Shown one piece after another: positions 1-64,000 of a stretch of 64,000 nt of DNA. The notes under the pieces were generated by a model. The model was not told the DNA's origin. It saw nothing but the letters and a program-made list of their open reading frames with translations, and searched no databases. The position numbers were made by a program, and so were the translations under genes. Source of the stretch: an uncultured virus (IMG/VR IMGVR_UViG_3300001528_000811) (lineage: Duplodnaviria > Heunggongvirae > Uroviricota > Caudoviricetes); the IMG/VR virus record IMGVR_UViG_3300001528_000811, one strand, 5' to 3'. Position 1 is the first letter of the stretch; each line of letters starts with the position of its first letter.

Positions 1-40
1 ATCTCAAAATTTAAATTTTGAGATTAGGTTTTAGTGTTTT
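1..40 (+). terminator. Perfect 24-bp palindrome followed by T-rich tract; probable terminator of an upstream gene
   Basis: ATCTCAAAATTT/AAATTTTGAGAT at 1-24 is self-complementary, followed by TAGGTTTTAGTGTTTT. Confidence 0.4.
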
Positions 41-173
41 TAATATTTAATATTTTATTATGGTGGTTTATAATGATATTTAAATTAAATACTCAATATT
101 TAATATTTTATAAAGATGAATATTAAAGTTAAATATTTTATATTTTATTATATAATTAGAGAGGTGTATAATT

Positions 174-728
174 TTGAGTTTATGGTTAAACGAACCTGCA
201 GTCATGACAAGGACCTCTGATATAATGCCCTGTGGTTTTTATAAATCAGAGATTTGTGCAATGAATTCAATTCGTATATATAAAGAACGATATGAAGAAG
301 ATTATTTAGATTTTTATGAATTACCTCCAGAGAATTTAAATAATCATTATTACAATTATATTTGTTTAGAAAAAACAAGAGGCAATATTGAAGATATTAA
401 AAATTTAAATTATATAGGTATATTAGGTAAAGAATATCCTCATTTATTTAATGAGGATAGAGAAGGGGTACAAGAGTTTTATTTTTATTCGCCTTTATTT
501 AAATTTAAATTTGAGGAAAAAAATATAAGATATATAAAATTAAATAGAAAAATATTAAAAACAGATTTAATAATACATGAAACAGAAAAAGATAAATATT
601 TTTTTGAATATTTTGATATAATAACATTATTAAAAAAAAATACGAATTTAATCTGTTTTTCTAAAGAGTATTTTAAAAATAAATTTAATGTTATAAATTC
701 TTATTTAATATTTTCAAAAAATGCTTAA
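174..728 (+). CDS. Hypothetical protein
   Basis: 184-aa ORF, TTG start after GAGGTG SD; overlaps next start. Confidence 0.6.
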   Translation: MSLWLNEPAVMTRTSDIMPCGFYKSEICAMNSIRIYKERYEEDYLDFYELPPENLNNHYYNYICLEKTRGNIEDIKNLNYIGILGKEYPHLFNEDREGVQEFYFYSPLFKFKFEEKNIRYIKLNRKILKTDLIIHETEKDKYFFEYFDIITLLKKNTNLICFSKEYFKNKFNVINSYLIFSKNA

Positions 729-1602
729 ATATTTAGGAGTACAAAAGATGAATTATGATTATATAATAAATAAATTGAAAGAAAGAGGATATTATTATTT
801 AATATTTAATGATAAAATTTCTTTTAATATTAATATATTTTCTATATCAAGGGTTTATAAAAACACAATATTGTTATGTTATAATAATAAAAGAGAACGC
901 TGTACAGATTATAATGCAGCTTGTAAAAAATTAATATTATTAATAAAAAATTATATCAAACAAAAATCAGTAAATATTAAATTTGAACAATTAAATTTTA
1001 ATGATGAAATTTATTTAAATTTACAAAATATTGAAGTTTCTACAGATGCCACAAAAATAGTATTACAATCTTATTTTTTTGAAGCACATTATAATAAACT
1101 TCATATTTTATCCGTCAATCATTATTCAAGTTTAAATATAATATTTAATAATGAGTTTAATTCTATTAACTCAGAAATTCTATCAAAAATAAAATTTCTT
1201 GTAAGAAATAAACATAAAACTCTAAGAACAGTTACAGAATATATTTATAATTTTTATAATAAAGACTATTGTATAAATACATATACAAAAGATATCATTT
1301 ATTCAGATAATGAAATAATTCCTTATGGGATAGAATTAATAGATGAAGAAAATTCTATATATACATTATTTTCTATTTTGAATTCGTATATTAAATGTGA
1401 GTTATTAAAAAAGCTGACTAAAGAAGATTTGTCAAATTGTGATAATTTATATATACATAGATTTCTAAATAATTATTCTTTAGGTTCAATTAAAGATGAT
1501 TTATTTACGAAATTTAATATTAATAATAATCATCTTATACAATTACAAACATTATTTTTAACAACAATGCCTAAAGATTTACAAACAAGAAAGGAGATTT
1601 AA
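721..1602 (+). CDS. Hypothetical protein
   Basis: 293-aa ORF coupled to neighbours; true start may be the downstream Met (748) after AGGAG. Confidence 0.7.
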   Translation: MLKYLGVQKMNYDYIINKLKERGYYYLIFNDKISFNINIFSISRVYKNTILLCYNNKRERCTDYNAACKKLILLIKNYIKQKSVNIKFEQLNFNDEIYLNLQNIEVSTDATKIVLQSYFFEAHYNKLHILSVNHYSSLNIIFNNEFNSINSEILSKIKFLVRNKHKTLRTVTEYIYNFYNKDYCINTYTKDIIYSDNEIIPYGIELIDEENSIYTLFSILNSYIKCELLKKLTKEDLSNCDNLYIHRFLNNYSLGSIKDDLFTKFNINNNHLIQLQTLFLTTMPKDLQTRKEI

Positions 1603-1604
1603 TA

Positions 1605-4578: not shown

Positions 4579-7500
4579 ATGAAAATGAAAAATTTGGAAT
4601 TTATTTTTAATAAGTTTTTACACTATATGTTAATAAGTTCTATATTTTTAAGTAATATAATATATAGTCCAAGTGTAGTAGAAGCAAGAACTAGTGTTAG
4701 TATTCCTACAGGAGTATGGCGTGATTATTATACAGATGAATGTCATCAACCTATATATTTATCTAAAGGCGATGATAAAAAAGAACATTTTTTCATGGAT
4801 ACAATTACATTTTGTCTTGCAAGTATAATTGGTTCAAATACTTGCGATTATTGTGAGGAAACATATTTTGATTATAAATGTACTTACATGTATGCAAAAA
4901 ATAAAATTGAAAAAATGCAGTATATAACTATAAAGAACTGTTCTAAAGAACAGTTAAAATGGGTAGGAAATGAATTATACGACCAAAGAAATATTTTAGT
5001 AGCTACTTTGAGAAATAGCTCATTTGAAAGAGCAAATTTTACATCTTATAGTCATCAAAATCCAAGTGAAGATAATAAATGTTGTTCAGAAGGACAAAAT
5101 CATGATGTTTATAATCACAGTGATTTATCTTTAGATTTTACAAGAGTGGCTTTTTCTTTTGATAGATTAAGTTTTAATATAGGATTTATTTATGAAGGTA
5201 CTTATAATTATTTAGAAGTATCTGATGACTATAAGGACTGTATAGAGTATAAAACTATTAATAGAGATGATTATAAAGTTTTTATACAACCTGAAACTTT
5301 AACTATTCAAGAGGAAGATTGTACAGTGTACTATGGTGACCAGATGCAATTAACAGTAGAAATGAAACCTGAAAATATAAATGCAGGTACTTATATAAAT
5401 TGGTCAAGTTCTAATGATAATGTAGCTTCTATAACTTCCACAGGTCTTGTATCTTTTTTAAACACTGGTGTGGCAACGATAATAGCCACTACAGATAATG
5501 AGATAAAAGATACAATTAAATTTATAGTAGTTCAACCTGATAGCGGTTCTGATGCGACAAATGTTGAAGAAATACAATTTCCTCAACCAAACTATTATGG
5601 ACAAGTTGGTTCACAAATTCAAATAACTCCAACTATATATCCAGAGAATGCAACAAATAAAAAAGTATATTGGTCATCATCTAATGAAGATGTTGCAACA
5701 GTAAATGAGTTCGGAATAGTTACAGCTTTAAAAGCTGGTTTAACAAATATAACAGCAGTATCTGATGATGGACAATATTCTGATGAATATAAATTAGAAG
5801 TTAAGAATAGAGTAGAAAATATTAATATAATAAATAAAGTTAATGAACTTAATTCTGGAGAAACTTATAAATTAGAAGTTAATCTTTATCCAGATAATGT
5901 AAAAGATAATACTTTAACTTATAATTCTTCTAATCCTGAAATTGCAACTATTTCAGATGAAGGTTTAATAACAACTTTAAAAAGAGGCGAAACTTTAATA
6001 TCCGTAATTAGTAATTGCAATTTAAATATAGAGGATGAATTCAATTTAACAGTAAATCAATTAGCAACTACTATAAATGTGGAAAAAGACTTAACTTTAA
6101 TAAAAGGAGAAATGTATAAGTTAAATCCTAAAGTATTACCTGAAGATGCAAATGTAAAAGATTTAATATTTGTATCAAGTAATCCAGAAATAGCAAAGGT
6201 TTCTAATGAAGGCTTAATAGAAGCAATATCTAAAGGAGAAACAACTTTAACAGTAACCACAAAGGATAATTTAATATATGAAATAATAAACATAAAAATT
6301 ATAATTTTACCAGAAAATTTAATAATAGAAGCACCAACAAAAATAGACAAAACTTATAATAAAACATATAAGCTAGGATTAAAATTTGAACCTGAATTAT
6401 GTGAAGAAGATACAATAAAATGGTCTTCATCAAACAATAACATAGCAACTATATCTAATGACGGTTTACTAACAATACTGAATAACGGTTTAGTTACTAT
6501 AACTGCAGTATCAGAAAAATATGATTTATATAATAAAGCAACAATAGAAATTTATACTTCAGCGGAAGGATTTGAAATAGATAGACCTGAGAAAATGTAT
6601 GATGATATGGAATATGATTGGACTTTAAATTTAATTCCAAAAACAACTTCAGAAGATACATTATATATTTTAATAATAAATAATGAAAAATATAATTTAA
6701 ACAAAAATACATTTAATATACATTTTGATAGAAAAGAAGCAGGGATTTATAATTTTAATGCAACTTTATTTACACAAGATTTAGCACCATTAGAAACAAT
6801 ATCTTTTGAGTATGAAATTCTTTCAAGAAAAAAAGAAACTAATATAGAAATATCCAATATAAAGCTTTCGGAAGATTTAATTTCTGACGAAAACGTATCT
6901 TTAATAAAAGAAGGTAACAATATAACAATAGCAATTCCTTCTGATAAAAATTTTAATATTGATGATTTAGAATTTGATATTCCTAAAGGAGCAAAGAAAA
7001 AAGTAATAAAAATAGATGATAATAATTATAAAATAATAATTATATCTAAAGATAATTCAACAGAACAGGAAATACTCATTAATGTGGCACACAAGAAATC
7101 TGATGATATTAATTTAATATCTGTTGTAATAGCTGGTATATCTGCAACATTATTTAATGATAATATTTCAGCAATATTACCTATAGATTATAAATTGCAA
7201 ACATCTGATTTCGAAATAATTTTAAGCGATAAAAAAGCTAATTATTTGATAACAGATGATTTTAAATATTTAATAGTAACAGCAGAAAGTGGTATAACAA
7301 AAACATATAATTTAAATTTAATAATACCTAAAGGAGATGCAAGGATAAAAACAATACAAGTTGGAGATAATTTTGCAATATTTAATGGAGAAAGTTATTA
7401 TATAAATTCTGAATATACAGAGGATATAAAAATAATAACAGTAGACCCAAATGCAAAAATAACTTTAACTTTAACAACTTCAGAACTAAATTATTTAATT

Positions 7501-8520
7501 TATGAATTTAAAATTGAATCTGGCCATGAAGTAAATACAGGTATTTTAAAGATAAAATTAAAAGGAGACAATCCTAACTATATTCCAATAGAGGATGAAA
7601 CTGATAACGAAGTAACTGATAATAAAAATAATGAAAAAGATATAATATCAGGAAGTTCATCTTCAAATAACAATTCTTCAAATAATAATTCTTCAAACAA
7701 AGATTTAATAATAGATAATATAAATAATATCAATACTAAAGAAAGTAACAATTTAGATTATATTTTAGTAAGTAAAGAAGATAAGAATAAATTAATGTCT
7801 ACAGCAGAAGATAATAAAGATTTAATAGTTAAAGATGATAAAATAGTTACAAGTAAGGATAATAAAGAAATAATAACTATCGAAGATTTTTTAACAAAAA
7901 ATATCAGGAAAAATGTATCAGATGATACTTTAATATCTTCAAGTAATAAATATACAGTAAAAGAAAATGATGACGGAACTTTAGATTTAATATTACCGGC
8001 GGAAGCACCTAGCAATGCACTTTCATCAGAAAATATATTTTATGATGAAGAAGTTAATAAATACTATCTATACATAGAAAATTTAGGTTTAATAGAATTA
8101 AACCCTCAAATGGTTTCAACAATGGTTATATCTGCTGAAAATAATATAGGGTATTTGGATAATAAGAAAATTTATATAAAAGATAAAGTTGAAATTATAG
8201 ATGATGAGTATTATTTACCAATGAGGCAGATACTTGAATATCTTGGAGCAGAAGTAGATTGGACACAAGATGAATTTAAGGCATCATTCAGATTAGATAA
8301 TAAATTAATAAATATTTATACAAATAATTTAACATCAGAGTATAAAGTAATAAATGAAAGAATATATACAACTTTAGATGAATTAATAAGTAGTTTCGAT
8401 TTAATATCTGATACAATAAGCAAGGATACAGAAAATAAATCTATAGAGATATTGAAAGATATCACATCAACAGTGTCAAATATTAAATTAGCTACAACTA
8501 TGAAATACACTTTAAATTAA
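4579..8520 (+). CDS. Secreted/surface protein: signal peptide, Cys-rich N-domain, ~5 Ig-like Big_2 repeats, beta-sandwich repeats, C-terminal copper-amine-oxidase-N-like domain
   Basis: Hydrophobic N-terminus ending VEA; repeats WSSSNDNVASI, WSSSNEDVATV, YNSSNPEIATI, FVSSNPEIAKV, WSSSNNNIATI; VTAESGITKTY; S/N linker; YLPMRQILEYLGAEVDW. Confidence 0.85.
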   Translation: MKMKNLEFIFNKFLHYMLISSIFLSNIIYSPSVVEARTSVSIPTGVWRDYYTDECHQPIYLSKGDDKKEHFFMDTITFCLASIIGSNTCDYCEETYFDYKCTYMYAKNKIEKMQYITIKNCSKEQLKWVGNELYDQRNILVATLRNSSFERANFTSYSHQNPSEDNKCCSEGQNHDVYNHSDLSLDFTRVAFSFDRLSFNIGFIYEGTYNYLEVSDDYKDCIEYKTINRDDYKVFIQPETLTIQEEDCTVYYGDQMQLTVEMKPENINAGTYINWSSSNDNVASITSTGLVSFLNTGVATIIATTDNEIKDTIKFIVVQPDSGSDATNVEEIQFPQPNYYGQVGSQIQITPTIYPENATNKKVYWSSSNEDVATVNEFGIVTALKAGLTNITAVSDDGQYSDEYKLEVKNRVENINIINKVNELNSGETYKLEVNLYPDNVKDNTLTYNSSNPEIATISDEGLITTLKRGETLISVISNCNLNIEDEFNLTVNQLATTINVEKDLTLIKGEMYKLNPKVLPEDANVKDLIFVSSNPEIAKVSNEGLIEAISKGETTLTVTTKDNLIYEIINIKIIILPENLIIEAPTKIDKTYNKTYKLGLKFEPELCEEDTIKWSSSNNNIATISNDGLLTILNNGLVTITAVSEKYDLYNKATIEIYTSAEGFEIDRPEKMYDDMEYDWTLNLIPKTTSEDTLYILIINNEKYNLNKNTFNIHFDRKEAGIYNFNATLFTQDLAPLETISFEYEILSRKKETNIEISNIKLSEDLISDENVSLIKEGNNITIAIPSDKNFNIDDLEFDIPKGAKKKVIKIDDNNYKIIIISKDNSTEQEILINVAHKKSDDINLISVVIAGISATLFNDNISAILPIDYKLQTSDFEIILSDKKANYLITDDFKYLIVTAESGITKTYNLNLIIPKGDARIKTIQVGDNFAIFNGESYYINSEYTEDIKIITVDPNAKITLTLTTSELNYLIYEFKIESGHEVNTGILKIKLKGDNPNYIPIEDETDNEVTDNKNNEKDIISGSSSSNNNSSNNNSSNKDLIIDNINNINTKESNNLDYILVSKEDKNKLMSTAEDNKDLIVKDDKIVTSKDNKEIITIEDFLTKNIRKNVSDDTLISSSNKYTVKENDDGTLDLILPAEAPSNALSSENIFYDEEVNKYYLYIENLGLIELNPQMVSTMVISAENNIGYLDNKKIYIKDKVEIIDDEYYLPMRQILEYLGAEVDWTQDEFKASFRLDNKLINIYTNNLTSEYKVINERIYTTLDELISSFDLISDTISKDTENKSIEILKDITSTVSNIKLATTMKYTLN

Positions 8521-8810
8521 TACAATTTAATTTTAACCATTTTAATTTTAATCAATTTAATTTCTATACAATTTAATTTTAACCATTTTAATTTTAATCA
8601 ATTTAATTTCTATACAATTTGATTTTAATACAATTTTAATTTTAATAAATTTTAATTTAACTAATTTGATTTTCACACAATTTAATTTTAACAAATTTTA
8701 ATTTAACTAATTTGATTTTCATACAATTTTAATTTAACAATTTTAATTTAACAATTTAATTTTAACAAATTTTAATTTTAACAAATTTTAATTTTCATAC
8801 AATTTTTAAC
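8521..8810. repeat. Degenerate 14-17-bp tandem repeat (consensus ~CAATTTAATTTTAA, about 18 units) with a 46-bp higher-order duplication
   Basis: TACAATTTAATTTTAACCATTTTAATTTTAATCAATTTAATTTCTA occurs exactly at 8521-8566 and 8567-8612; + strand almost devoid of G. Confidence 0.9.
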
Positions 8811-9442: not shown

Positions 9443-9607
9443 ATGAAAATATTAAATTCAAAAACTAGTGAGATAAAAAATAAAATAATTGAAAAAATAT
9501 TGAAGAAAAGGTCAGAAGATTTGTATGATATAAAGACAGGACCTAGTTTAAACTTCTCATTAGAGCAAAATATTACTGGAGGATTTAATAATGGAAATAT
9601 TAGATAA
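9443..9607 (+). CDS. 54-aa hypothetical protein (missing from ORF track)
   Basis: AAGGGAG SD, MKILNSKTSEIKNKIIEKILKKRSEDLYDIK...; overlaps start of PilT-like gene. Confidence 0.5.
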   Translation: MKILNSKTSEIKNKIIEKILKKRSEDLYDIKTGPSLNFSLEQNITGGFNNGNIR

Positions 9608-10478
9608 ACTTCCAGAAATATTTAAAAATCTTTTGGATTTGCAATTGAAGGAAGGAGCTTCAGATTTACATCTTCAGAGTAATTCTGAAGCTTTTTTAAC
9701 TAAAGAGGGACAAATAGTTTCAACAGGAATATTTATAGATGAAAACACTTTATGGAAAGTTAAAGAAGTTTTAACATCAAATACAGTATATTATGGTTTA
9801 TTGATTGATAATAAATCTGTAGATTTTTCATTTGTTTATAATAGTGATTTTAGATTTAGAATATCTATTGTAGAAAGTTTTAGAGGTTTAAAATTTTCTA
9901 TAAGAAATAATAATTATAGAATTAGAACTTTTAAAGAGTTAGGTTTTAATCCTACAGTTTGGGAAAAACCTTTAAGACAAGATGGCGGTTTAATTTTAAT
10001 AGCCGGTTCAACAGGAAGTGGAAAAACCACAACAATGGCTTCTGCAATAAACGAATTAATTAAAAAAAAGAAATGTATAATAACTCTTGAAGACCCTGTA
10101 GAATATATTTATGATACAAATGAAACTTCAGTAACACAGAGAGAATTATATATAAATTTTAATAATTACGCAACAGCAATAAGAGATGCAATGCGTATGA
10201 AACCTGATGCAATAATAGTTAATGAATTACGAGATAAATCTACAATTGATGCAACTTTAGAAGCAGCAGAAACAGGGCATCTTGTAATAGGAACTGTTCA
10301 TACTAAAAATTTAGAGGCAATAGAAAATCGTTTAATTTTAACATTTCCTTCAGATGAGCAGCAATTAAAAAGAGAAATTTTGAAGGAAACTTTAATTTAT
10401 AAAGTTCATCAAAAATTAGTCTTTGATGAATTAACACAAAAATTAAATTTAATTTATACAGATAAAATATTTATTTAA
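9591..10478 (+). CDS. pilT: PilT/PilU-family traffic ATPase, C-terminally short
   Basis: GASDLHL, Walker A GSTGSGKTT, Asp box ITLEDPVEY, Walker B region PDAIIVNELRD, His box AAETGHLVIGTVHT. Confidence 0.85.
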   Translation: MEILDKLPEIFKNLLDLQLKEGASDLHLQSNSEAFLTKEGQIVSTGIFIDENTLWKVKEVLTSNTVYYGLLIDNKSVDFSFVYNSDFRFRISIVESFRGLKFSIRNNNYRIRTFKELGFNPTVWEKPLRQDGGLILIAGSTGSGKTTTMASAINELIKKKKCIITLEDPVEYIYDTNETSVTQRELYINFNNYATAIRDAMRMKPDAIIVNELRDKSTIDATLEAAETGHLVIGTVHTKNLEAIENRLILTFPSDEQQLKREILKETLIYKVHQKLVFDELTQKLNLIYTDKIFI

Positions 10479-12587: not shown

Positions 12588-12590
12588 TTT

Positions 12591-51525: not shown

Positions 51526-51542
51526 AACTCCTATAGTTTAAG

Positions 51543-53411
51543 GTGGTGAAATTTTTAATGTTTCAGAGGTATAAAGAATTAAAAATAAAAATAAAAGATA
51601 TAGGAGAGAAATTAATAGATTTAGATATAAACATTAAGGAATTAAGAAATCAAATAGATATATATAAAATAGATATTAAAGATAAACAAGATAATATAAG
51701 AATACAATTAGAGCAACAATCTGAACGTTTATTTACAAATACATTAAACGATAATTTAGATGAAATAGTAGAATTAAAAATGGATTTAAATAATTACGAA
51801 AATAATATAATAAAAACTTTTGAGAATTTAATTAATAAATGTAATAATAAGAATTATATAGATTTTTATAATTTTAATGAACTATTAAATACTTTAGAAT
51901 TGATAGATGATAAATTAATTAAAATTTTAAACAAATCACAATGTAATGAATATTTAGATTATTTTAAAAATACAGATTTAATTCTATTAAAAAATAAATT
52001 ATCAAACGAGGATATTTTAAAATATCTAAATTATTATACTAATTATGATTTAACAAAAGAGGCTAATAATTATTTCTTAACATTAGTAAACTTACTAAGT
52101 AAAATAGAAGATAACTCAATTTTAATTGCTATATTATTTTTATTTTTCTTTTTAGTTTATATTTTTAAATTTTATATTATAGTACCTTATATTTTTATTT
52201 ATTTTTGTACTTTAATAATAGATGTAAAAAAATTTATTTTAATAATAAGATTGTGTAATCTAAAAAATATAATAGAAATTCAAAAAAATACTTTAAATAT
52301 ATATAACGAAAAAAAGAGTAAAGAAATAATAAAATTGCAAATAAATCAATTGAAAAATAAAAAAGAGTTATATATAGAAAATGTTAAAAAATTAAGAAAA
52401 TTAATTGACAGAAGGGAAGATGAAATAAGGTATGAAACAAAAAAGAATTTTAATTATGAAAAAGCACAAAAAGAAGCAGAAAATAATATAAAATTATTAG
52501 AAAAAGATATAAATGAAAAAATAGAAATGATACAAGAAACATTAAAATATAAAGAAAAAGAATATGAAAAATTAAATGAAGCGAAAAATACTTTAATAGA
52601 AGAATTTAATAAATTAAAAAAAAATATAAAATCCTCCTATGAAGAACTTAAACCTAATTTTAATTCATATAGTATGTTAAAAGAATTTTTTTTAGGTTTT
52701 ACTGAAGATGAAGATATTTCAACTTTTGTTTATACTAGAGAACCTTATCTTATAGTATATAATGATACTATCGGACAATTTGAAGCAATGTTACAAATGA
52801 TTTCTATGATATTATGTCAAATAATTTGTAATATGACACCATTAGCATATCATATAAATATTATAGATACTTTAACAGCAGGAATGGGTTTGATGGGTTT
52901 TACAGCATCTTATAAAGATGATGAGCAAAATAATTTAGTATCTTTAATTATAAATGACAAATCTTATGAAGATTTAATAAATAATCTTTATAATGAATTT
53001 ATGAATCGTGGAGTAGAAATAAAGACATCTTTTAATGATATAGAAGAATACAATAATAAACAATTATCAATAGAAGCTAGAAGTCTACCTTATATTATTA
53101 ATATCTTTTTTAATTATAACTTAACAACAGTAATTAATAATGATAAGTTAAAACAATTAAATAAAGTAGGTTCTGAAATAGGAATTGACAATATTTATGT
53201 TTTTAATATATCTGAAATTGAAAGTAATAAAAAAAATAGAGAAACTGTGAGTACATCAAAAATTTATAAATATAAATATGAAGATTACAGTGAGTTTATA
53301 AAAATATTTAAAAAAGAGAATATATTTTCTTTTAATATAAATAATGATGATATAAAGATAGTACCTTTAACAAAAGATGAAATGGAAAATATAATAATAA
53401 AAAATATTTAA
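51543..53411 (+). CDS. Coiled-coil membrane protein with C-terminal degenerate FtsK-like domain
   Basis: Coiled coils flanking a TM hairpin (ILIAILFLFFFLVYIFKFYIIVPYIFIYF); INIID, LYNEFMNR, DIEEYN, LPYIINIF, VGSEIGI resemble FtsK layout without Walker A. Confidence 0.6.
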   Translation: MVKFLMFQRYKELKIKIKDIGEKLIDLDINIKELRNQIDIYKIDIKDKQDNIRIQLEQQSERLFTNTLNDNLDEIVELKMDLNNYENNIIKTFENLINKCNNKNYIDFYNFNELLNTLELIDDKLIKILNKSQCNEYLDYFKNTDLILLKNKLSNEDILKYLNYYTNYDLTKEANNYFLTLVNLLSKIEDNSILIAILFLFFFLVYIFKFYIIVPYIFIYFCTLIIDVKKFILIIRLCNLKNIIEIQKNTLNIYNEKKSKEIIKLQINQLKNKKELYIENVKKLRKLIDRREDEIRYETKKNFNYEKAQKEAENNIKLLEKDINEKIEMIQETLKYKEKEYEKLNEAKNTLIEEFNKLKKNIKSSYEELKPNFNSYSMLKEFFLGFTEDEDISTFVYTREPYLIVYNDTIGQFEAMLQMISMILCQIICNMTPLAYHINIIDTLTAGMGLMGFTASYKDDEQNNLVSLIINDKSYEDLINNLYNEFMNRGVEIKTSFNDIEEYNNKQLSIEARSLPYIINIFFNYNLTTVINNDKLKQLNKVGSEIGIDNIYVFNISEIESNKKNRETVSTSKIYKYKYEDYSEFIKIFKKENIFSFNINNDDIKIVPLTKDEMENIIIKNI

Positions 53412-53431
53412 TAGTTGAGAGGAGTTATATA

Positions 53432-56056
53432 ATGAAATTAATAACATCAAAATTAGATTTTATAGATATTCCTATAGAATATTTTGTAGGATATATAAAT
53501 GATGAAAAACAATTAATATGTTTAGGTGAAATATTTAATAATTTAGAGGAATTTAATTTTTTAATTAGGAATGAGATAATTGAATTAGATACTTTAATGA
53601 TAAGAGATATTGCAATACCTTATTTTAATTTAAATGAAAAAATTGAAATAATAAATTTAGGTTCAGAAATAGATTTAAAGAATTTAAAAAACTTAGCATC
53701 AAATTATAATATGGACATTTCAGTAAAAAAGAAGTTAGACCCATTATTAATTACAATGAATTTAACTTCTGAAGAAATTTATATATTGCAGCAATTTATA
53801 ACAAATACATTTACCATAAAAAATGAATTAAAAGAAAATTATTACAATGATAATTTCTTAAATTCAGATTTAATAATTATGAATCAAGCATTTGATATTT
53901 TAAGAAATAGTAGAAAGAAAAATCCCAAAATATCAAATATTAGATATTCTTTAGTAAATACTTTTAACAATATTACATCATCTCAAATAACATCAAGTGA
54001 TATATTATCTATAAGAATACCAGATATTGATATGTTACGAAATTATAAAAATAAATTAAAAAATGCAAAAATAAAGAATATAGAAAATTACGATTTAATA
54101 GAAAACAGAATTTTTGAATTAATAAATGATTATATTACAGATTTTGTTTATGAATTAAAAAGTAATGATTTACAGAGATTAGGTATTAGGCAATCTTCGG
54201 ACAAATCTAATTATGAGTCTACAGAGTGTGAAGTTATTGGAAATGATGTTAATGACCATTTATCAATTTTTATAAATGAAAAATCTTTTTATGATGCTTT
54301 AAAAAATTTTATAATAGAATATATAAAAATATTCTCTGAAGATGAATTTGATAAGAACTTAATATTATCTAATTTATATACATCAGACAATAGATTTATG
54401 AAACCTTTAATAATATTAATAAATGGTTATATATCTTTGGGTATCTATGAAAACTGGGCATTCATTAGAAATATGTCAGAAGATGAAAGAGCATTTGTTT
54501 ATAAGAGTAAACAAACAATGTTAACTTATAATGATGACGATAATGAGGAAGAAGAAAATAATGATGTATATTATGGTATAACAGAGAAACAGCTTTTAAG
54601 ACAATTTGAAGAACAATATTTAGATATAGCAAAAGTATGCAATAATATAGGTTCAAATTCTCAATATTACTATCTGGATAAAATAAAAACATTTATGTTA
54701 ACAAATGATTGTTCAACATTAGCCGTATTGGAATTAATTATAAAGCTTTTTAGGTGGGGTAATAGAAAACCTAGAAATATCTATCTTGAATGGGGAGAGA
54801 TGCATTATAGTTTAAGAAATAGTTATTTGGATTTATTGGAAATGGACACAATATTTACAGGAAATAGTTTAGCACAAAAACCAGTAGATTTCACAGATGA
54901 ATATCAATATAATTTTATTGGCTTTGGAATATCTGAATATAAAGAATTGGTAGAAGGTGTAGAAGCACCGACAAGACCTTTATCTAAAGCGGATATCTTA
55001 TATATGGAACAATTTTTAAATATAGAAATACCTGAAGGATTAAAAAATGGTATTAGATTAAATTCCATAATAACAAGTTTTCTCTTTAATGAATATTATA
55101 CTGAATTTGACAAATTAAAAAGTCGATTAATAGCAGTAGACTTATTTGATATAAAACAATTTTTAAATGAACATACAGCAGCAGGAATTAGGCTAGATAG
55201 TTCAAATAATATAGAATTATTTAATTATGAAGATGAAGAAACAGGTATCAATGGAATAAATTATAACAATTTAATTTTTATTGATACTTTTAATCTTTCT
55301 TATTTTTATAAAAGAAATTCTCTGCAAATGTGTAAAATATTTTTTGATAAGACTTTATATAAAACTTATTCAAATGTTAAAACGGCAGATGAGCAATTTA
55401 ATTTTACAGCAATAAATTTAATTGATAAAATATTTAATAAAAATTTAATAGTTAATATTTTAATGCCAAAAGAAAAGACAAATGAGAATGATTATTTAAT
55501 ATATAAAGAGTTTGGTTATAAAATATTACATTATATAGAACTTTGTAATGATTTAAATATTATTACTAATAATACTATAGATACGGCAGAGTCCTATACA
55601 AAAATTTATCACAATTTAAAATCATCTATAAAAAATATAGAAGATGAAATAAAATTAAGAATTGAATTAATAAATGATGTTTTAAATACCAATTATAAAA
55701 TAAAGATTAATAAAGAATTAAAAATAGAAGATAATGTGTTACTTGAAAAAATGGAAATTTCGGAAAAAGCAATTTTTTATTTTACAATTGAAAATGGAGT
55801 ACACCATTTATATGTAAATTCAGAATTTCCTGATTTACCACAATCTTCAGAATATAAATATTTTACAAATGCAAATGCAGGGTATAGATTATTAGTAGAT
55901 AAAGTAAAAAGATTTGAAGAGACCAAACAAACCTTAAAATTATCTAGAGCTTGTTTACAGGGAGTACAGCAAATAATAAGTTTTTATGCTAAAATAATAA
56001 AAACAGGAGATGTAAAAACTGTTTATGCTGTTCTAGAAAAAAATTATAAGTGTTAG
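53432..56056 (+). CDS. Large hypothetical protein
   Basis: 874-aa ORF, GAGGAG SD. Confidence 0.8.
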   Translation: MKLITSKLDFIDIPIEYFVGYINDEKQLICLGEIFNNLEEFNFLIRNEIIELDTLMIRDIAIPYFNLNEKIEIINLGSEIDLKNLKNLASNYNMDISVKKKLDPLLITMNLTSEEIYILQQFITNTFTIKNELKENYYNDNFLNSDLIIMNQAFDILRNSRKKNPKISNIRYSLVNTFNNITSSQITSSDILSIRIPDIDMLRNYKNKLKNAKIKNIENYDLIENRIFELINDYITDFVYELKSNDLQRLGIRQSSDKSNYESTECEVIGNDVNDHLSIFINEKSFYDALKNFIIEYIKIFSEDEFDKNLILSNLYTSDNRFMKPLIILINGYISLGIYENWAFIRNMSEDERAFVYKSKQTMLTYNDDDNEEEENNDVYYGITEKQLLRQFEEQYLDIAKVCNNIGSNSQYYYLDKIKTFMLTNDCSTLAVLELIIKLFRWGNRKPRNIYLEWGEMHYSLRNSYLDLLEMDTIFTGNSLAQKPVDFTDEYQYNFIGFGISEYKELVEGVEAPTRPLSKADILYMEQFLNIEIPEGLKNGIRLNSIITSFLFNEYYTEFDKLKSRLIAVDLFDIKQFLNEHTAAGIRLDSSNNIELFNYEDEETGINGINYNNLIFIDTFNLSYFYKRNSLQMCKIFFDKTLYKTYSNVKTADEQFNFTAINLIDKIFNKNLIVNILMPKEKTNENDYLIYKEFGYKILHYIELCNDLNIITNNTIDTAESYTKIYHNLKSSIKNIEDEIKLRIELINDVLNTNYKIKINKELKIEDNVLLEKMEISEKAIFYFTIENGVHHLYVNSEFPDLPQSSEYKYFTNANAGYRLLVDKVKRFEETKQTLKLSRACLQGVQQIISFYAKIIKTGDVKTVYAVLEKNYKC

Positions 56057-56210: not shown

Positions 56211-56234
56211 ATCTTTAATTTTTTTAATAGGGAG

Positions 56235-58586
56235 GTGGATTTATTGATTTTAAATTACGATAAATTAGCAATTAAAGAATTAGCCATATCAGCATCTAAG
56301 TTTTATCAACATGAATTAGATAAAACTTTAAATTTAGAAGATTATATTGAAATTCTTTTAAAAAATGCACAAAAAGGTGATACTAACTTTATGGGTACCA
56401 ATACTTTATATAAAAAAGTTGGTAGAAATAGAACAGTGAAAATAGCACCTAATATAAAAGAAATTTCAGATATAATAGATAGTATATCTGATAAACTAGA
56501 TGATATAAAAGAGTCTAATTTAAGTTTAGGTAAAAAAATACAAAAGAGAAAAGAATTATTACAAGAAAATATAAAACCTATAAAAATAGTAGAATTAAAA
56601 GATACAGATAAAATTTGGTGGGGAGATACAATCGATGGTATTAACATTCGATTTGGTTTATTAAATAATGATAGGTCAAAACCAGCTCTTGTAAATTTTG
56701 ATAACAATTGTGTACATGGTAATGCAGGAGGAGAAACAGGACAAGGAAAATCTGTAATGGATGATTGTATTTTAATGTCTTGGATTTATGAATATCCACC
56801 TTGGGAATTGAAGATTTATTTTATAGATGCTAAAATGGCGGAGGGTTCTAAATACAATGGAATGTATAAAGTTCCAACTATTAAAGATATAGGTATGACA
56901 GGTACAGGTAGTTATGCTTCAACTATATATAATTACGTATCAAAAGAAATGACTTTATTATATAGCATAAATTCAAAATTAGAAATAAATAGTTTAAAAG
57001 CTTTAAGAGGTATGCTTGATATGGCAATACCTCGAACTATTATATTACATGATGAGATGACAGAAACTACTAATAGATGTACAAATAAAGAATTAGAAGT
57101 TTTAATGAATTCTTTAACAACAATTGTAAATCAAGGTCGAGCAGTAGGAAATCATTTATTTTTAACAACACAAACTTTCGCAGGAGTATTAAGTAATAAA
57201 ATACAAGGACAATTTGCTTTAGGTTTAAGTGTAGGAGCTAACCCAGATATTAGTGATAATTTAATAGGTAATGATAGAGCTACTGGATTAAAAAAGAAAA
57301 GAGGTTACTGTATTGTAAATAATAAAAGAAATATTAAAAATAATATAGATTTTAATCTAGAAGCAAAAGTAGCTTTTTGTCCAACAGGGGATGAAGCTGG
57401 TCAGAAGATATTTCTTAATCTCCTAAAAGTTGTGTCTGATTTTGCTGATGAAAAAGGAATTACAGAAAGGTCTACTGCTTTTAGCGAAGAGTCTTCAACT
57501 AACATAAAAAATTTTGATGAAGATTTAAAAGAAGTACAATTAAAAGCTGAAGAACAAATACAGCAATTTAATTTTAATAATTTAACCACTTTGTTATTGG
57601 GAGATGGTATGGTTTATACAGGTTCTGTAAAAACCTATAAAGAATATTTAATATGGAATTATGAAAAAAAATCTAACTTATTTATACATACTTCTAATAT
57701 ATCAAATTTAATTTATATGACAAGAATGGTAGGTAAAGCAATAGATAATTTAAATAAAGATATAACGCACTATGCTATAATAGACAAAGCTATGCTATTT
57801 AAAGATAATATTATAAATAGTTCTATAAGCAAAGATTATACCGGAGATTTTAATGTTAATAGTTATTTAAAAGATATAGAAGTAAGAAAAACTTTTTTAC
57901 GATATGGGAATATATGCAGAGGAGAAAATAAGAAGTGGAACTTTTTTGATTTTATAGATTATTTAATATCCAAAAATTTATTTGAATTTAAGATAGAATT
58001 TATAGAATTTAAAAAAACAATTTCAAGTTTAATTCTATTTGAAAAAGCAATCCCAGCTTTAATAGAACTTTGTCAATCGAGAAATGTTTTTGAATATAAT
58101 TTAAATAATAAGTCTTTAAAATATTTTAAAGAACATATAGAATTTTACACTTTAACAATGAGATGGATGATTAGATATAATTTAATAAAATCTCGCATAA
58201 CAAAAGATTATTTAAAACCCGAAGATTTACCTGTAAAAATCTTTTGGTTTTTTGGACCAAGTAATAATGATGGTATAAAAAATAAATGGGGAGAAATATC
58301 AAATGAATTTAATCAATTTTTAATTGAAGGTTCAGAAGTAGGTTTATTTAGTATTTTAATTGTAGATGAATTGGAGAACGCTGCTGCAACAGTTAAATGT
58401 TGTAAACACTTAATAGCTTCAACTTTACACCCATCTATAGATAAATATAATTTAATTAATTTTAAAGAAAATGAAAAAATAAAAGGTAAGTTATTTTCTT
58501 ATACTCAATGTGAGAATACAAATACACCTACAGTATATTTTAAACGTTATTATACCGGAAAAGATTTAACTGTTTTAAATTTTTAA
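56235..58586 (+). CDS. FtsK/SpoIIIE (EssC/EccC-like) ATPase with second degenerate ATPase domain
   Basis: HGNAGGETGQGKS, YPPWELKIYFIDAK, IILHDE, QGRAVGNHLFLTTQ; C-terminal LIEGSEVGLF. Confidence 0.85.
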   Translation: MDLLILNYDKLAIKELAISASKFYQHELDKTLNLEDYIEILLKNAQKGDTNFMGTNTLYKKVGRNRTVKIAPNIKEISDIIDSISDKLDDIKESNLSLGKKIQKRKELLQENIKPIKIVELKDTDKIWWGDTIDGINIRFGLLNNDRSKPALVNFDNNCVHGNAGGETGQGKSVMDDCILMSWIYEYPPWELKIYFIDAKMAEGSKYNGMYKVPTIKDIGMTGTGSYASTIYNYVSKEMTLLYSINSKLEINSLKALRGMLDMAIPRTIILHDEMTETTNRCTNKELEVLMNSLTTIVNQGRAVGNHLFLTTQTFAGVLSNKIQGQFALGLSVGANPDISDNLIGNDRATGLKKKRGYCIVNNKRNIKNNIDFNLEAKVAFCPTGDEAGQKIFLNLLKVVSDFADEKGITERSTAFSEESSTNIKNFDEDLKEVQLKAEEQIQQFNFNNLTTLLLGDGMVYTGSVKTYKEYLIWNYEKKSNLFIHTSNISNLIYMTRMVGKAIDNLNKDITHYAIIDKAMLFKDNIINSSISKDYTGDFNVNSYLKDIEVRKTFLRYGNICRGENKKWNFFDFIDYLISKNLFEFKIEFIEFKKTISSLILFEKAIPALIELCQSRNVFEYNLNNKSLKYFKEHIEFYTLTMRWMIRYNLIKSRITKDYLKPEDLPVKIFWFFGPSNNDGIKNKWGEISNEFNQFLIEGSEVGLFSILIVDELENAAATVKCCKHLIASTLHPSIDKYNLINFKENEKIKGKLFSYTQCENTNTPTVYFKRYYTGKDLTVLNF

Positions 58587-58703
58587 AAGTCGGTATATAA
58601 AACTAGATATTTTTAATAATTGTATGTATATAAGATTAGTCAAGAGATATGGGCTATCTTGATTTAATATATTAAATTTTAATAAATGAAAGGAGTGCTA
58701 AAT

Positions 58704-59399
58704 ATGGCACAGATTTTAGCTTCAGGAAAGAAAATTGATTTTGTAAAAAATGTCACAGAGGAAACACTTAAATTACAAAGAATATTGCAAGAAGGTATTC
58801 TAGATGTAAAGAAAACAGCAAATGAGATTAATCAATCTACATTTGTTAAAACTTACAATGCTTTAGTTGATGGCATAAATGCTTTCAATGAAGTAACAAA
58901 TGAGATTTCCACATTACTTGTAAATTCAGCGGATAATTGGAGTTCAGTACCGGGAATAGCACAAGTAGCCAAAGTTGGGTTTGAAGAAGCATCAGCAGAA
59001 GCAAAGAAAATTAAATCAAATATAATTGAGGCAAAAATTATGGAATTGCCAGATGATTTGCATGAGAATGTAACAGACGATTTAACAAGAAAATTTACAG
59101 ATGTTTTAAATGATGTCATGGTACAACCACGTGAATACATTAAAAGAGTGGCAGAAGTTATAAATGATACTTCAACAGATGATACAAGAAATTTGTACGT
59201 TTCTATAGGTGCAGGTATCGAAAGAGTAACAAATGCATTTGTACGCGCATACAATGAGAATAAAGCAGAATTGCAGAAATGGAATATTGCTTTAGAGAAT
59301 ATTCAGTCTGATACTCAGACTAAAGCAAATACAAGAATTTCTTCTGTAGATAATACAACTTCAGTATTAGAGAAAAAAGTAAAAGCAGATATACTTTAA
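58704..59399 (+). CDS. All-alpha-helical protein, possible WXG100-like/structural protein
   Basis: AAGGAG SD places start at 58704 (MAQIL); visibly higher GC and Ala/Thr-rich relative to neighbours. Confidence 0.7.
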   Translation: MAQILASGKKIDFVKNVTEETLKLQRILQEGILDVKKTANEINQSTFVKTYNALVDGINAFNEVTNEISTLLVNSADNWSSVPGIAQVAKVGFEEASAEAKKIKSNIIEAKIMELPDDLHENVTDDLTRKFTDVLNDVMVQPREYIKRVAEVINDTSTDDTRNLYVSIGAGIERVTNAFVRAYNENKAELQKWNIALENIQSDTQTKANTRISSVDNTTSVLEKKVKADIL

Positions 59400-60770: not shown

Positions 60771-62543
60771 ATGTTAAAATATACAAAAACAGATTATGTT
60801 CCATCTTTGGAATTTAAAGCTTTAATGAGACGCCATTTAAATTTATATATGGATTATAATAAATTAAAATATGATATAATGTATGACAATGGTATCTTAA
60901 ATAATTTGTTTAAACAGATAAGCAATTATATTGAATTTTTTTCAGATTATAAGATAGAAAAATATACAGCTAATGAGATATGTCCATTTTTAGTAAAGTA
61001 TGAAAAAGTACCAGAAAATTTAATAATGAAGATAGGTAAAAAAGGTCCAATATATTCTTTAGATAAAACAATTAGAGAAAAATTAAATTCATATAATTAT
61101 GTACCTGAATTGATGGATTTAATTAATGCTTATACTGAAATAGATACATCTGTGGATATTGGTAGAAGTCTTTTAAGGGCATTAATAAAAACAGATTTAA
61201 TTTCAAACTGCGGTGATGAGATTTATTCTGCACCCTTTTCTTATAAAGAGTCTGATACCTTTAGAGTATATACTTCGGATATATCTGCAACAACTATTCC
61301 AATAAAATATGTAAAGCATATAACATCTCCAAAAGATTATTTGTTACTTTGGTGTGATTTTGCACAAATAGATTTGAGATGTGCTTGGAATATGATTTTA
61401 CGTTATAATAATGAACAATCTGCAAATATAGATATAAATTCTGACACAATAGATTTTTATAAATTAGTAGCACAAGATGTATCATTAACAAATAAAAGAA
61501 ATTTTTCGGAAGAGAAATTTAAAGAGGATAGACATAAATATAAAAGAATTATATTATCAACTATAAATGGTGCTTCAGTACAAGCTTTAATAAATGATAT
61601 AAAAGATAAAGTATTTTCTGAAAATTTATATAATTATATAAATACACAAAATAAAGCATATGTAGAATATAAAGAAACAATAAATAATAATATAGCTTCA
61701 AAAGTTAATTTTTATATGCAAACTTATTTTGGAACAAAAATGTATATACCTTTTGATGGTTTAGATAAAGATATATGCACAGCATCTTTAAATAGACCTT
61801 TACAGGGAACATCAGCAGATATACAAAAATTAGTAACAGTAGATATTTATAATAAGATGCAATCTTTAATAAATGACCCTACTAAATTTTTTCCTATTTT
61901 AAATAGGCATGATGAAACTTTATGGTATATACATAAAGAATGTTTGCCTTTTTTAAATGAGTTTAATAGCATGTGTAAAATACAAATAGATGATTGGGAT
62001 TTAATTGAATTAGAGTGGGAGATAGGGTATAATTATAAAACACCTATAACTGATATAAAAAATAAGTATATAAATAATTCAGAAGAAAAATTTATAAAAT
62101 CTAATGAAATATTGCCTAAACCTTTTTTACAACCAATACCTTTAGTAACCTTTTATTGTCAAGAAAAAATTGAAGATTATAATTTATATATAATTTCTTT
62201 AGATTGGGATAATTTAATTTTTGATGTTTACAAAGGTGATACAAATAAAGCAACTGAAAAATTTTTAAATAATTTATTCAATAAACATCTTAAAAATAAA
62301 GAATTCACTAGATTAATTTTACATGGAAATCGTGAAGGTTATTTAAATTTTAATGATAAAGAAATTATATTCTCTACAGAAAATAATAATACAAAATTCT
62401 TATATTCATGTAGATATATTATGAATAGATATATAGAAAGAGTACTTAAATTAAAAAAAACATTAGATTTAATCACTTCAGAAGTTTTTAAATTTACTCA
62501 CCAGAATAAATATTATTATGAGGAGGGTATACCTTGGAAATAA
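60771..62543 (+). CDS. Second family A DNA polymerase-like protein (polymerase domain only, atypical motif B)
   Basis: TFRVY, motif A CDFAQIDLR, motif B RHKYKRIILSTING, LNRPLQGTSADI, motif C RHDE; no exonuclease motifs. Confidence 0.8.
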   Translation: MLKYTKTDYVPSLEFKALMRRHLNLYMDYNKLKYDIMYDNGILNNLFKQISNYIEFFSDYKIEKYTANEICPFLVKYEKVPENLIMKIGKKGPIYSLDKTIREKLNSYNYVPELMDLINAYTEIDTSVDIGRSLLRALIKTDLISNCGDEIYSAPFSYKESDTFRVYTSDISATTIPIKYVKHITSPKDYLLLWCDFAQIDLRCAWNMILRYNNEQSANIDINSDTIDFYKLVAQDVSLTNKRNFSEEKFKEDRHKYKRIILSTINGASVQALINDIKDKVFSENLYNYINTQNKAYVEYKETINNNIASKVNFYMQTYFGTKMYIPFDGLDKDICTASLNRPLQGTSADIQKLVTVDIYNKMQSLINDPTKFFPILNRHDETLWYIHKECLPFLNEFNSMCKIQIDDWDLIELEWEIGYNYKTPITDIKNKYINNSEEKFIKSNEILPKPFLQPIPLVTFYCQEKIEDYNLYIISLDWDNLIFDVYKGDTNKATEKFLNNLFNKHLKNKEFTRLILHGNREGYLNFNDKEIIFSTENNNTKFLYSCRYIMNRYIERVLKLKKTLDLITSEVFKFTHQNKYYYEEGIPWK

Positions 62544-63274
62544 AAGAATTGATAGATTTTAAGGATAATTTAAGAAAAGTATTTATGAATATTTATATTA
62601 AATCTAATTATAATTGGTATTATTTTTTAAAATCTGCAGAACATTTAAGAAATGATGCTTTAAAGCAAAGTAAAGCTTTAAATGATACATCTTTGGCAGG
62701 ACAAATAAGAGGTGAGATTGCAGAAATAATTTTAGAAGTAAAGATAATAGATTTTATCAAAAAAAACAGATTACCTTGGTTTATAGTAAAGTCTTTAACA
62801 ATTCCTCGTACAGATAAGAAACAAAAAAAGACAACGGAATTGGATTTAACTTTATTCACACCAACACATATAATTCTTTTTGAAATAAAATCAAGAAAAG
62901 GAAAATATATTTTAAAAGATGAATGTAATTTAATCTCTAGTGGTTTTGATTATAATTCAAACGTATATAAACAAAATATAATGCATTTAGATAATTTAAG
63001 ATATTTTCTGGGAGATGCAATCTTAACTATGAACAAAGAAAAACCTTTTAAGTTTGTTTTGTTTCTTGATGATATTTGTGATTGTGTTGATAAAAGAGAT
63101 TTTAATAATAAACAAAAATATCAGCTTTTAAGATTAAATGATATAGATAAATATTTAGCAAATGAGTTAAAATATACATCACAAATTTGGGATATGCAAA
63201 AAATAAAAAATATTTTAATAAAGTTAAATAATGAGTCAGAAAATAATTTTTTAAAACATATGAATGTTAAATAA
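62534..63274 (+). CDS. NERD-domain (PD-(D/E)xK) nuclease
   Basis: GEIAE, TELDLTLFTPTHIILFEIKS, NVYKQNIMH. Confidence 0.8.
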   Translation: MEIKELIDFKDNLRKVFMNIYIKSNYNWYYFLKSAEHLRNDALKQSKALNDTSLAGQIRGEIAEIILEVKIIDFIKKNRLPWFIVKSLTIPRTDKKQKKTTELDLTLFTPTHIILFEIKSRKGKYILKDECNLISSGFDYNSNVYKQNIMHLDNLRYFLGDAILTMNKEKPFKFVLFLDDICDCVDKRDFNNKQKYQLLRLNDIDKYLANELKYTSQIWDMQKIKNILIKLNNESENNFLKHMNVK

Positions 63275-63326
63275 TTGAGAATTGTTTAATATTTAATATT
63301 TTAATTTTTAAGGAGGTGTTTTTAAA

Positions 63327-63761
63327 ATGATAAAAATTGATTTAAATAAATTTAAGAAAGGTATGGAAATAATATTAGATGCTTCATTTCAACGAGTAAC
63401 AGTTGAAACACTATATAAAAAATTATTTATTGAAAATACAGAAATAAATAATTTAATAATACAAGAATTAGAAAGTATGAAAGATATACCTGAAGATTTA
63501 ATTGTGAATTATAAAAAATTAGTTGATTTTTTATCAAATTGTAAAAAATTTAATTTTGATTTAAAATTTAATAATATAAAAATAAAAAATATAATAAAAA
63601 AAGATATATCTACATTTGTAGAAAATAATTTTAATTTAGATATAAATAATATAGAAATTAAATATGCCATATGTGAAAATACAAAAATAGATTTGCCTAT
63701 GAATACCTTACTAGTTGATTTAGAAAAAGGAGATAATTATGTATTCACAAATATTAACTAA
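63327..63761 (+). CDS. Hypothetical protein
   Basis: 144-aa ORF, AAGGAGGTG SD. Confidence 0.7.
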   Translation: MIKIDLNKFKKGMEIILDASFQRVTVETLYKKLFIENTEINNLIIQELESMKDIPEDLIVNYKKLVDFLSNCKKFNFDLKFNNIKIKNIIKKDISTFVENNFNLDINNIEIKYAICENTKIDLPMNTLLVDLEKGDNYVFTNIN

Positions 63762-64000
63762 ATTAGTTAATAATATATATGCAAGTGATTATTTAAAACA
63801 AAAAAATTTATTGGAATATTTTTGTAATAATATAAGAAAAATAGATTTAAATATTTTATTAGATTGTAAAGCTTTTATAGTAATATCTGATAGATATTTA
63901 TTAAATTTTGATAAGGATTTAGATATTTATCCTGAGTTAAATATATATCAAAATGGTAAGTGTAAATTTTATTCTCGTTTAATATTACCCATTTGGGGAT
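63739..64000 (+). CDS. Partial ORF, probable DnaG-type primase catalytic core lacking its zinc finger
   Basis: AAGGAG SD, open to window end; ...PELNIYQNGKCKFYSRLILPIW resembles DnaG FxxRIxFPI. Confidence 0.5.
   Translation, partial: MYSQILTKLVNNIYASDYLKQKNLLEYFCNNIRKIDLNILLDCKAFIVISDRYLLNFDKDLDIYPELNIYQNGKCKFYSRLILPIWG

Follow-up and report, generated by a model that had tools for sequence, protein, structure and literature searches.

The DNA analysed here (the window) comprises positions 1-64,000 of a 73,777-bp linear contig recorded as a virus in IMG/VR (IMGVR_UViG_3300001528_000811). It most likely represents the core region for replication and transcription of a giant circular element, plasmid-like in kind and ~190 kb or more in size, that belongs to Clostridia. 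This plasmid-like interpretation is the best supported, and we consider it probable, chiefly through a distant but colinear complete relative, a closed circle in an isolate of Clostridium paraputrificum. Plasmids are assumed to rely on the RNA polymerase (RNAP) of their host. The best reading of the family to which the window belongs, judged from sequence, is one of transcriptionally autonomous, probably conjugative megaplasmids.

Coding layout of the contig

All 50 non-overlapping open reading frames (ORFs, ≥70 aa) that start inside the window lie on the + strand, as do all 58 of the contig, which is 94.6% coding with a guanine-cytosine (GC) content of 21.6%. An earlier note, made from the letters of the window alone, had described about 50 genes, all on this strand. 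ORFs on the minus strand do not exceed 133 aa and each overlaps + genes, and GC skew is above zero in 32 of 32 window bins. The circularity of the contig had been left to be checked: it is linear, and its ends show no terminal repeat. A tRNA/tmRNA scan and an Rfam search of the 73.8-kb contig gave zero matches, and profile-library scans of the same contig found no ribosomal protein. PADLOC had no match in 26 proteins. Flanks with ribosomal operons and housekeeping genes, which would have spoken against the earlier note, were not seen in the 9.8 kb beyond the window; these carry SbcCD-like and replication genes.

A single-chain RNA polymerase in a clade of its own

26479..33696, + strand: single-chain beta-beta' RNA polymerase, 2,405 aa (Pfam Rpb2_6 and Rpb1_2 in one ORF)
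14811..15485, + strand: Gre-type transcript cleavage factor (GreA_GreB_N, 25.2 bits for a cut-off of 24.5)
33869..36007, + strand: 712-aa protein in a conserved slot after the RNAP gene (candidate promoter-specificity factor, by position only)

The RNAP of the window is near full length and aligns with bacterial RpoB and RpoC. Both barrels and the beta catalytic-barrel motif are present and intact, as is the NADFDGD motif at residue 1574. The divergent RNAP of the earlier note is thereby confirmed; the beta-beta' fusion is a point that it did not make. The Gre gene directly follows the gene of a DnaC-like protein, an arrangement also found in the C. paraputrificum circle.

Three queries found no close relative of this RNAP in PLSDB (72,556 plasmids) or INPHARED (50,697 phages). 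The top matches were chromosomal rpoBC on misfiled records, or phage matches at 22-36%. Close similarity to a described phage genus, which would likewise have spoken against the earlier note, was therefore not observed. Records with ordinary chromosomal rpoB/rpoC occur in these plasmid and phage collections, e.g. 12 from C. difficile, and are probably misfiled chromosome pieces. In a search of cluster representatives, the best 150 of 5,617 matches were mostly proteins of 2,000-3,400 aa. A first tree was built from 135 of 154 proteins, those of at least 1,850 aa, and 94 clusters (<50% identity) joined the window RNAP in one clade. In a second tree of 60 sequences, with supports from the Shimodaira-Hasegawa approximate likelihood ratio test (SH-aLRT), this family clade received 100, and the family together with its sister clade 99.6. 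The family lies outside the cellular-type sequences, and its sister clade consists of RNAPs of tailed phages and matches IMG/VR contigs. The window RNAP and two 50%-identical proteins form a long branch inside the family; relatives in this subclade come from contigs of up to 145-195 kb, among them P0155 (RNAP 50% identical) on one of 194,667 bp and P0007, P0159 and P0011 on contigs of 144-181 kb.

A clade motif was searched in larger collections; a near-identical pattern matches 34 of the 94 family members and does not reach the subclade of the window. The motif had 0 matches in viral contigs; of 50 distinct genome loci with a match, 3 proved to be members, as did 31 of 75 metagenome loci. The three genome members are the C. 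paraputrificum isolate, a Lachnospiraceae assembly and a Clostridium metagenome-assembled genome, in agreement with the Clostridia-like host guessed from the window alone. Thirteen of the 31 metagenome contigs exceed 200 kb and the longest reaches 670 kb (no more than 20 kb were read per contig). In a comparison of 33 member loci, ligase, RNAP, a large protein and PolA come repeatedly in this order; of 549,537 ORF bases, 542,208 share the strand of the RNAP gene. Scans with patterns for the subclade to which the window belongs gave zero matches in viral, genome and metagenome contigs; with universal RNAP motifs, none of the 160 viral loci among the matches listed had the family as best match. 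In the genus of the isolate, the RNAP was found at E 1e-60 in 1 of 122 scored genomes (8 further genomes were left out). Seventeen of the 31 metagenome members (in L234-L305) have P0148 as their best match and form one lineage, with contigs as long as 553 kb. The names of four member contigs include human gut. In most, an HNH gene follows the RNAP gene.

No sigma-factor family was found with the profile libraries in the window or in the C. paraputrificum circle. The relatives have a gene for a protein of 740-1,100 aa directly after the RNAP gene. The 712-aa protein in this slot of the window shows no sequence similarity to those proteins and has no Atlas match; by its position it is a candidate promoter-specificity factor. 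The comparisons gave no tie to a sigma factor.

A complete relative in Clostridium paraputrificum

The relative is a 188,469-bp contig (G001:C57) of a C. paraputrificum isolate. Its ends overlap by 127 nt and it is therefore a closed circle of 188,342 bp, with 213 of 216 ORFs on one strand, positive skew in all bins and a GC content of 31.9%. The isolate also has ordinary chromosomal rpoB/rpoC. A closed circle beside a normal chromosome, by which a megaplasmid is recognised, is thus found for this relative, while the window's contig is a linear fragment. Nineteen of the 58 proteins of the window's contig match the circle, and all 19 are in a shared circular order (0/2,000 shuffles); among them, the PilT/PilB pair is probably not orthologous.

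The circle carries a Tad-type locus (CpaB, ParA/TadZ-like, TadA/VirB11) and PilB, as well as a sortase, UvrD, a RecJ-like protein, a clamp loader, a 5'-3' exonuclease and NlpC/P60. A ParM-like actin gene (PHROG 691, E 2e-8) is present there and not on the window fragment. A 206-aa RpoA-like protein is encoded at 38,805-39,425 (L212:18805-19422; NF003517, E 1.6e-4). Its gene adjoins that of the 5'-3' exonuclease, upstream of a clamp-loader ATPase. The genes of a P-loop ATPase and an NlpC/P60 hydrolase adjoin each other and follow those of large membrane-type proteins, a layout known from Gram-positive transfer regions. We call this ATPase VirB4-like from its P-loop motifs, its context and its plasmid homologues, without a library match. 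Among the 216 ORFs of the circle, no relaxase or VirD4/coupling protein family was recognised, no integrase was found (Pfam) and no ribosomal protein was found. Positions 18,629-22,189 and 135,335-140,637 hold toxin-antitoxin or conflict cargo (two Fic, HicA, HipA-like, nucleotidyltransferase-HEPN and SLOG).

A backbone related to Bacillus megaplasmids

The VirB4-like ATPase of the circle matches 11 Bacillus plasmids, pXO16 among them. For the PolA of the window, the best plasmid matches are pXO16 (192 bits) and a 216-kb Bacillus velezensis plasmid (156 bits); the other plasmids have at most 90 bits among the matches listed (20 of 76). In pXO16 of Bacillus thuringiensis sv. israelensis (350 kb, NZ_CP013277.1), 405 of 426 ORFs are on one strand, and a common orientation of its coding sequences is described in PMC6199540. 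The B. velezensis plasmid (NZ_CP076292.1) has 235 of 260 ORFs on one strand. Like the window and the circle, both show positive skew throughout.

Homologues in these two plasmids include PolA, SNF2, ligase, Toprim, UvrD, the clamp loader and the VirB4-like ATPase, i.e. 5-7 proteins in common with the window and 12-15 with the circle. Gene order relative to the circle is conserved for 10 of 12 genes in the B. velezensis plasmid (0/2,000 shuffles) and more weakly, for 9 of 15, in pXO16 (61/2,000 shuffles). Neither plasmid has a profile match to a two-barrel RNAP (in a search without its own positive control) or the sequence DFDGD, and neither has a match to the DnaK or FtsK/EssC-like protein of the window. 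Judged from these matches, the backbone of the element is distantly homologous to RNAP-less Bacillus megaplasmids including pXO16. According to PMC9673590, pXO16 is conjugative by experiment, without an identified relaxase or origin of transfer (oriT). This plasmid, whose transfer mechanism is unresolved, would thus gain a set of relatives. A VirB4-like homologue followed by an M23 peptidase also occurs in 136-155-kb plasmids of the B. subtilis group (L310, NZ_CP089149.1 and kin), typed as non-mobilizable.

Virion genes and alternative explanations

Terminase, portal and HK97 capsid proteins were all missing among 60 contig proteins compared with PHROGs. The virion-labelled matches were those of immunoglobulin-like (Ig) repeats to tail or structural families and of the P-loop of PilT to terminase (E 0.00098), neither of which indicates virion genes. 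Because the contig is a linear fragment, this absence proves nothing alone. In the complete circle, searched at profile level (216 ORFs against Pfam, 146 against PHROGs), there was no terminase, portal or major capsid protein either. The only virion-labelled rows were NlpC/P60 tail-lysin matches and a PhiKZ decoration protein at 20.4 bits (cut-off 35). The earlier note, which had recognised no capsid, terminase or ribosomal genes, is thus borne out for the fragment. A search for Gp23 matched nowhere and is uninformative.

As a positive control we used a virus record of the sister clade (G136). Among 80 of its ORFs, of 230-1,500 aa, the same approach detected a terminase (E 7.8e-55), a major head protein (E 5.3e-10) and a tail sheath. 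This virus codes on both strands and shares the RNAP alone with the window (1/58) and with the circle (1/216). Since it shares only the RNAP and the Bacillus plasmids share the backbone, the backbone is pXO16-like and the RNAP has phage relatives. G136 (L346-L355) is a tailed phage of 202 kb; its genome carries direct terminal repeats, and its RNAP, ~2,060 aa long, is a beta-beta' fusion.

The earlier note had left the choice between a jumbo phage and a giant plasmid-like element. The plasmid branch is now favoured by the circle, with its closed form and its pilus, transfer-type and partition genes; for the fragment itself, the phage branch keeps a smaller share of probability. Several points weigh against the plasmid-like interpretation. 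The contig is recorded as a virus. The circle is only about 25-30% identical to the proteins of the window and is placed in another RNAP subclade, a long branch away, and no more than about a third of the family is reached by the clade motif, without the subclade of the window. Genes for VirB4, Tad, ParM or a relaxase are not seen on the fragment, which lacks, between PilT and the DnaC-like gene, the block in which the circle carries them, and its PilT is another type of ATPase than the PilB of the circle. The circle itself is without an identified relaxase or coupling protein, and its VirB4 name without a library match. The gene order of pXO16 is only weakly conserved (9/15), and one sub-threshold match to the PhiKZ decoration protein (20.4 bits, cut-off 35) was found in the circle. 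Finally, one terminase family missed two of three sister-clade virus records; profile misses are therefore real.

A first alternative is that the window belongs to a large tailed phage or phage-plasmid, with virion genes outside the fragment or too divergent and with accessory pilus and ATPase genes. The RNAP clade is sister to tailed-phage RNAPs, the record is filed as a virus, the split primase, split ligase and SbcCD-like genes are phage-like, more than 100 kb of the window's element is probably unseen, and profile misses occur. However, the colinear complete circle has no detectable virion module whereas the control phage shows a clear one, and it carries partition, sortase, Tad and VirB4-like genes; moreover, the sister phage shares the RNAP alone and no viral contig matched the clade motif. 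We thus regard this explanation as unlikely. Less probable still, with only a slight chance, is a chromosome-integrated conjugative element or giant genomic island whose circles are excised forms. Host flanks are conceivable in the member contigs of 553 and 670 kb, of which 20 kb each were read, but the C. paraputrificum relative assembles as a closed circle without an integrase among its 216 ORFs (Pfam), and its own replisome and ParM-like gene argue against an integrated element. That the window stems from a secondary chromosome, or from a cellular genome that is highly reduced, is largely refuted by the complete circle and is barely credible, although fused RpoBC is known in some bacteria (PMC2919709) and although the GC content of 21.6% and genes such as DnaK, Gre and the replisome are of cellular type. 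The 73.8 kb gave no tRNA, rRNA or ribosomal protein, and ribosomal proteins were not found in the circle either (216 ORFs); in the tree, the RNAP branches apart from the cellular-type sequences, and the host has its own rpoBC.

Proposed mode of life and candidate promoters

The megaplasmid would replicate as a circle, unidirectionally, with its own DnaB, split primase, PolA and split ligase. The uniform skew would result from this unidirectional replication, and all transcription would then run with the fork. Its own RNAP, probably together with an element-encoded alpha-like subunit (seen in the circle), would read lineage-specific AT-rich promoters, used in place of host sigma-70 sites. Maintenance would depend on a ParM-type system, the gene of which is seen only in the circle. 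Spread would occur by cell contact, through pili and a pXO16-like VirB4/NlpC-P60 apparatus and not through virions; these genes, too, are seen only in the circle. The RNAP gene would share a common ancestor with tailed-phage RNAPs and would have been joined to a pXO16-like megaplasmid backbone. If this is true, RNAP, Gre, replisome and promoters of its own would insulate the element from host sigma control.

Candidate promoters were found between genes, with patterns picked after inspection:

12590..12655, + strand: example of the strand-polar intergenic motif TATTTAATATT, candidate promoter of the element's RNAP
51,479-51,527; 56,118-56,229; 59,492-59,645, + strand: other sites of TATTTAATATT type, in arrays
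8,428; 23,899; 83,969; 91,848 and others, in the circle: intergenic sites of the motif TATARATWWGTG

Of 17 intergenic regions of the window, 13 contain its motif (shuffle mean 0.56); 41 copies are on the + strand and 6 on the - strand. All 10 matches of the circle motif are intergenic, none is on the - strand and seven lie 31-54 nt ahead of an ORF. Both motifs are lineage-specific: the coding strand of each element is free of the motif of the other. In 8.4-27 kb, there is no enrichment of sigma-70-like sites (175 vs. 180.7).

The RNAP of the window ends in an acidic tail with T-x-x-F at its end (33,670-33,696). A phenylalanine within the last four residues is present in 72 of 94 family RNAPs, compared with 9 of 41 others. 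In the circle, 33 of 212 other proteins carry S/T-x-x-F at a terminus, for 5.7 expected (0/300 shuffles). With the same objective definition the excess is marginal in the window (5 of 57 vs. 2.0; 14/300 shuffles) and in contig C37; with a pattern chosen by eye, the window has 5 for 0.23 expected. Possible binding partners of this terminal motif are a clamp, a chaperone and a transfer ATPase. Jumbo phages deliver a virion RNAP along with their DNA. By extension, the family might consist of capsid-less Clostridia replicons of ~190 to >400 kb that combine jumbo-phage-like private gene expression with movement by conjugation, the RNAP and dozens of other proteins, tagged with a lineage-specific terminal S/T-x-x-F motif, being gathered by one hub and sent to the recipient with the DNA; this extension is speculative, and we hold it to be doubtful.

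Comparison with known systems

The mReC phages (Weinheimer and Aylward 2020, PMC7481178) are described as tailed phages with a multi-subunit RNAP, capsid and terminase. The family of the window resembles them in its deep-branching bacterial-type RNAP, and its sister clade consists of virus records, one of which has terminase and capsid. It differs in that the control phage codes on both strands and has nothing but the RNAP in common with the window. In passages of PMC7481178, RNAP fusion is mentioned for crAssphage alone.

Among giant plasmids, the Hodor megaplasmids (Yuan et al. 2026 preprint, PMC12934698) are reported to exceed 300 kb in gut Bacillota, to carry VirB4, ParM and sortases and to be often filed as viruses; they are defined there by Rep_3, ParAB, a protein of >7,300 aa and a GC content of 44-47%. 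The circle resembles them in its sortase, ParM-like and VirB4-like genes; identity was rejected, as it lacks Rep_3, the >7,300-aa surface protein and the SecYEG module and has 31.9% GC. Inocles (Kiguchi et al. 2025, PMC12340149) are presented as plasmid-like giant circles found in Bacillota, and they carry genes for sortase and DNA repair. They too were rejected: their marker InoC (PF13814) has no match in the Pfam scans of the window and the circle, and they have Pol III and not PolA. The Enterobacteriaceae megaplasmids (10.1101/2025.09.30.679422) were likewise rejected as an identity. The main texts of these three articles contain no occurrence of 'RNA polymerase'.

Other element-encoded two-barrel RNAPs include Orf6, a plasmid-borne Rpb2::Rpb1 fusion (PMC2919709), and such enzymes are characterised as reduced, split or very divergent in PMC7824862. 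By comparison, the enzyme of the window is near full length and accompanied by Gre, with an alpha-like gene in the circle. A description of an RNAP-bearing megaplasmid family was not found in the literature, with most subscription papers and supplements outside the search. In the best reading, what is new is therefore a megaplasmid family that would join a pXO16-like backbone with its own multi-subunit RNAP, and would link tailed-phage RNAPs to a plasmid backbone. The family is diverse (at least 94 clusters of <50% identity), is found on some of the longest gut-metagenome contigs and has at least one member filed as a virus. A cultured carrier exists, in which autonomy, promoter use and particle formation are open to direct tests.

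Replication and repair genes of the window

8505..8806, strand not assigned: AT-rich tandem array, ~19 copies of a 15-16-nt unit (candidate replication origin)
13230..14078, + strand: UvdE UV-damage endonuclease (Pfam, E 7.3e-8), absent from the earlier note
14095..14814, + strand: DnaC-like putative helicase loader (motif and position; circle homologue, E 7.8e-26)
17272..18663, + strand: SNF2-type helicase (Pfam; circle homologue, E 1.7e-32)
18818..20467, + strand: DnaB replicative helicase (PHROG 19, E 7.6e-7; Walker A at 266)
22218..22727, + strand: stand-alone primase CHC2 zinc finger (Pfam, E 2.1e-8)
23348..24265, + strand: putative RuvC-like resolvase (circle homologue at the matching position, E 2.7e-11)
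24268..25485, + strand: NAD-dependent ligase, adenylation part (PHROG 3869, E 1.2e-18; KxDG at 127)
36043..36924, + strand: 293-aa protein in the conserved slot before PolA (position; E 0.09 to the relatives' profile)
36937..40734, + strand: DNA polymerase A with exonuclease domain, likely replicase (Pfam, E 1.4e-36; motifs intact)
40838..41758, + strand: ligase C-terminal part of a split ligase (circle homologue, E 7.3e-11)
41742..44717, + strand: 991-aa conserved-position protein with an N-terminal T-x-x-F motif (slot matches a 930-aa circle gene)
44793..45761, + strand: putative clamp-loader delta-like protein (pairwise E 1.7e-5 to the positional circle gene)
50864..51451, + strand: DEDD exonuclease (Pfam, E 2.8e-8)
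60771..62543, + strand: second PolA, polymerase domain alone (Pfam, E 6.8e-15; motifs intact)
62534..63274, + strand: NERD nuclease (Pfam, E 1.6e-10)
63739..64000, continuing to contig position 64,500, + strand: primase Toprim part (profile libraries)

Pfam and PHROGs bear out the DnaB, primase parts, two PolA, Gre and DnaK of the earlier note. Its ligase parts stand on different grounds: the N-terminal part matches PHROG 3869, and the C-terminal part, without a library match of its own, is identified by homology to the circle, whose protein matches a ligase PHROG, and to pXO16 (E 1.4e-10). The DnaC-like, RuvC-like and delta-like genes of that note are upheld by motif, position or homology to the circle and not by a library; together with the C-terminal ligase part, they had zero matches in any profile library. 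A homologue of the DnaC-like gene is also present in the B. velezensis plasmid. The window and the circle each have two PolA genes whose catalytic motifs are intact, and the gene ahead of the long PolA in the relatives resembles, by eye, a decayed PolA C-terminus.

Beyond the window, Toprim is followed by SbcC/SbcD-like genes and a possible beta-clamp gene. For this 360-aa gene, the Atlas points to a beta-clamp cluster (score 0.92; PF00712 in 11% of its members, with low recognition). A PDB search gave no match, and hhalign against the DnaN of the host gave no signal, scoring below several of 112 controls.

Surface, chaperone and ATPase genes of the window

4579..8520, + strand: surface protein with five Big_2 Ig repeats and a C-terminal Cu_amine_oxidN1 domain (Pfam, E 4.6e-59 and 1.5e-7)
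9591..10478, + strand: PilT-type pilus ATPase (TIGR01420, E 1.9e-64; T2SSE)
20479..22218, + strand: DnaK/Hsp70 (Pfam, E 1.7e-72)
51543..56056, + strand: coiled-coil/membrane protein (622 aa) and 874-aa protein (pairwise E 9.8e-8 and 0.004 to positional circle genes)
56235..58586, + strand: FtsK/EssC-like ATPase (Pfam, E 4.9e-8; TIGR03928, E 1.8e-10)
58686..59399, + strand: helical protein of no named family, possibly WXG100-like (a guess from size and context)

The surface functions named from the window alone (Ig-repeat protein, PilT, FtsK/EssC-like) are confirmed by Pfam and TIGR families. A similarity search with the 874-aa protein retrieved itself alone, and the circle homologue of the FtsK/EssC-like ATPase matches EccCa (E 2.6e-17). 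The block at 51,543-59,399 was undetected in pXO16 and the B. velezensis plasmid. It is kept in the circle at 179,691-186,875, with a coiled-coil/membrane protein, a large protein, an EssC/EccC-like ATPase and a small helical protein, and is possibly a type VII-like module within the core.

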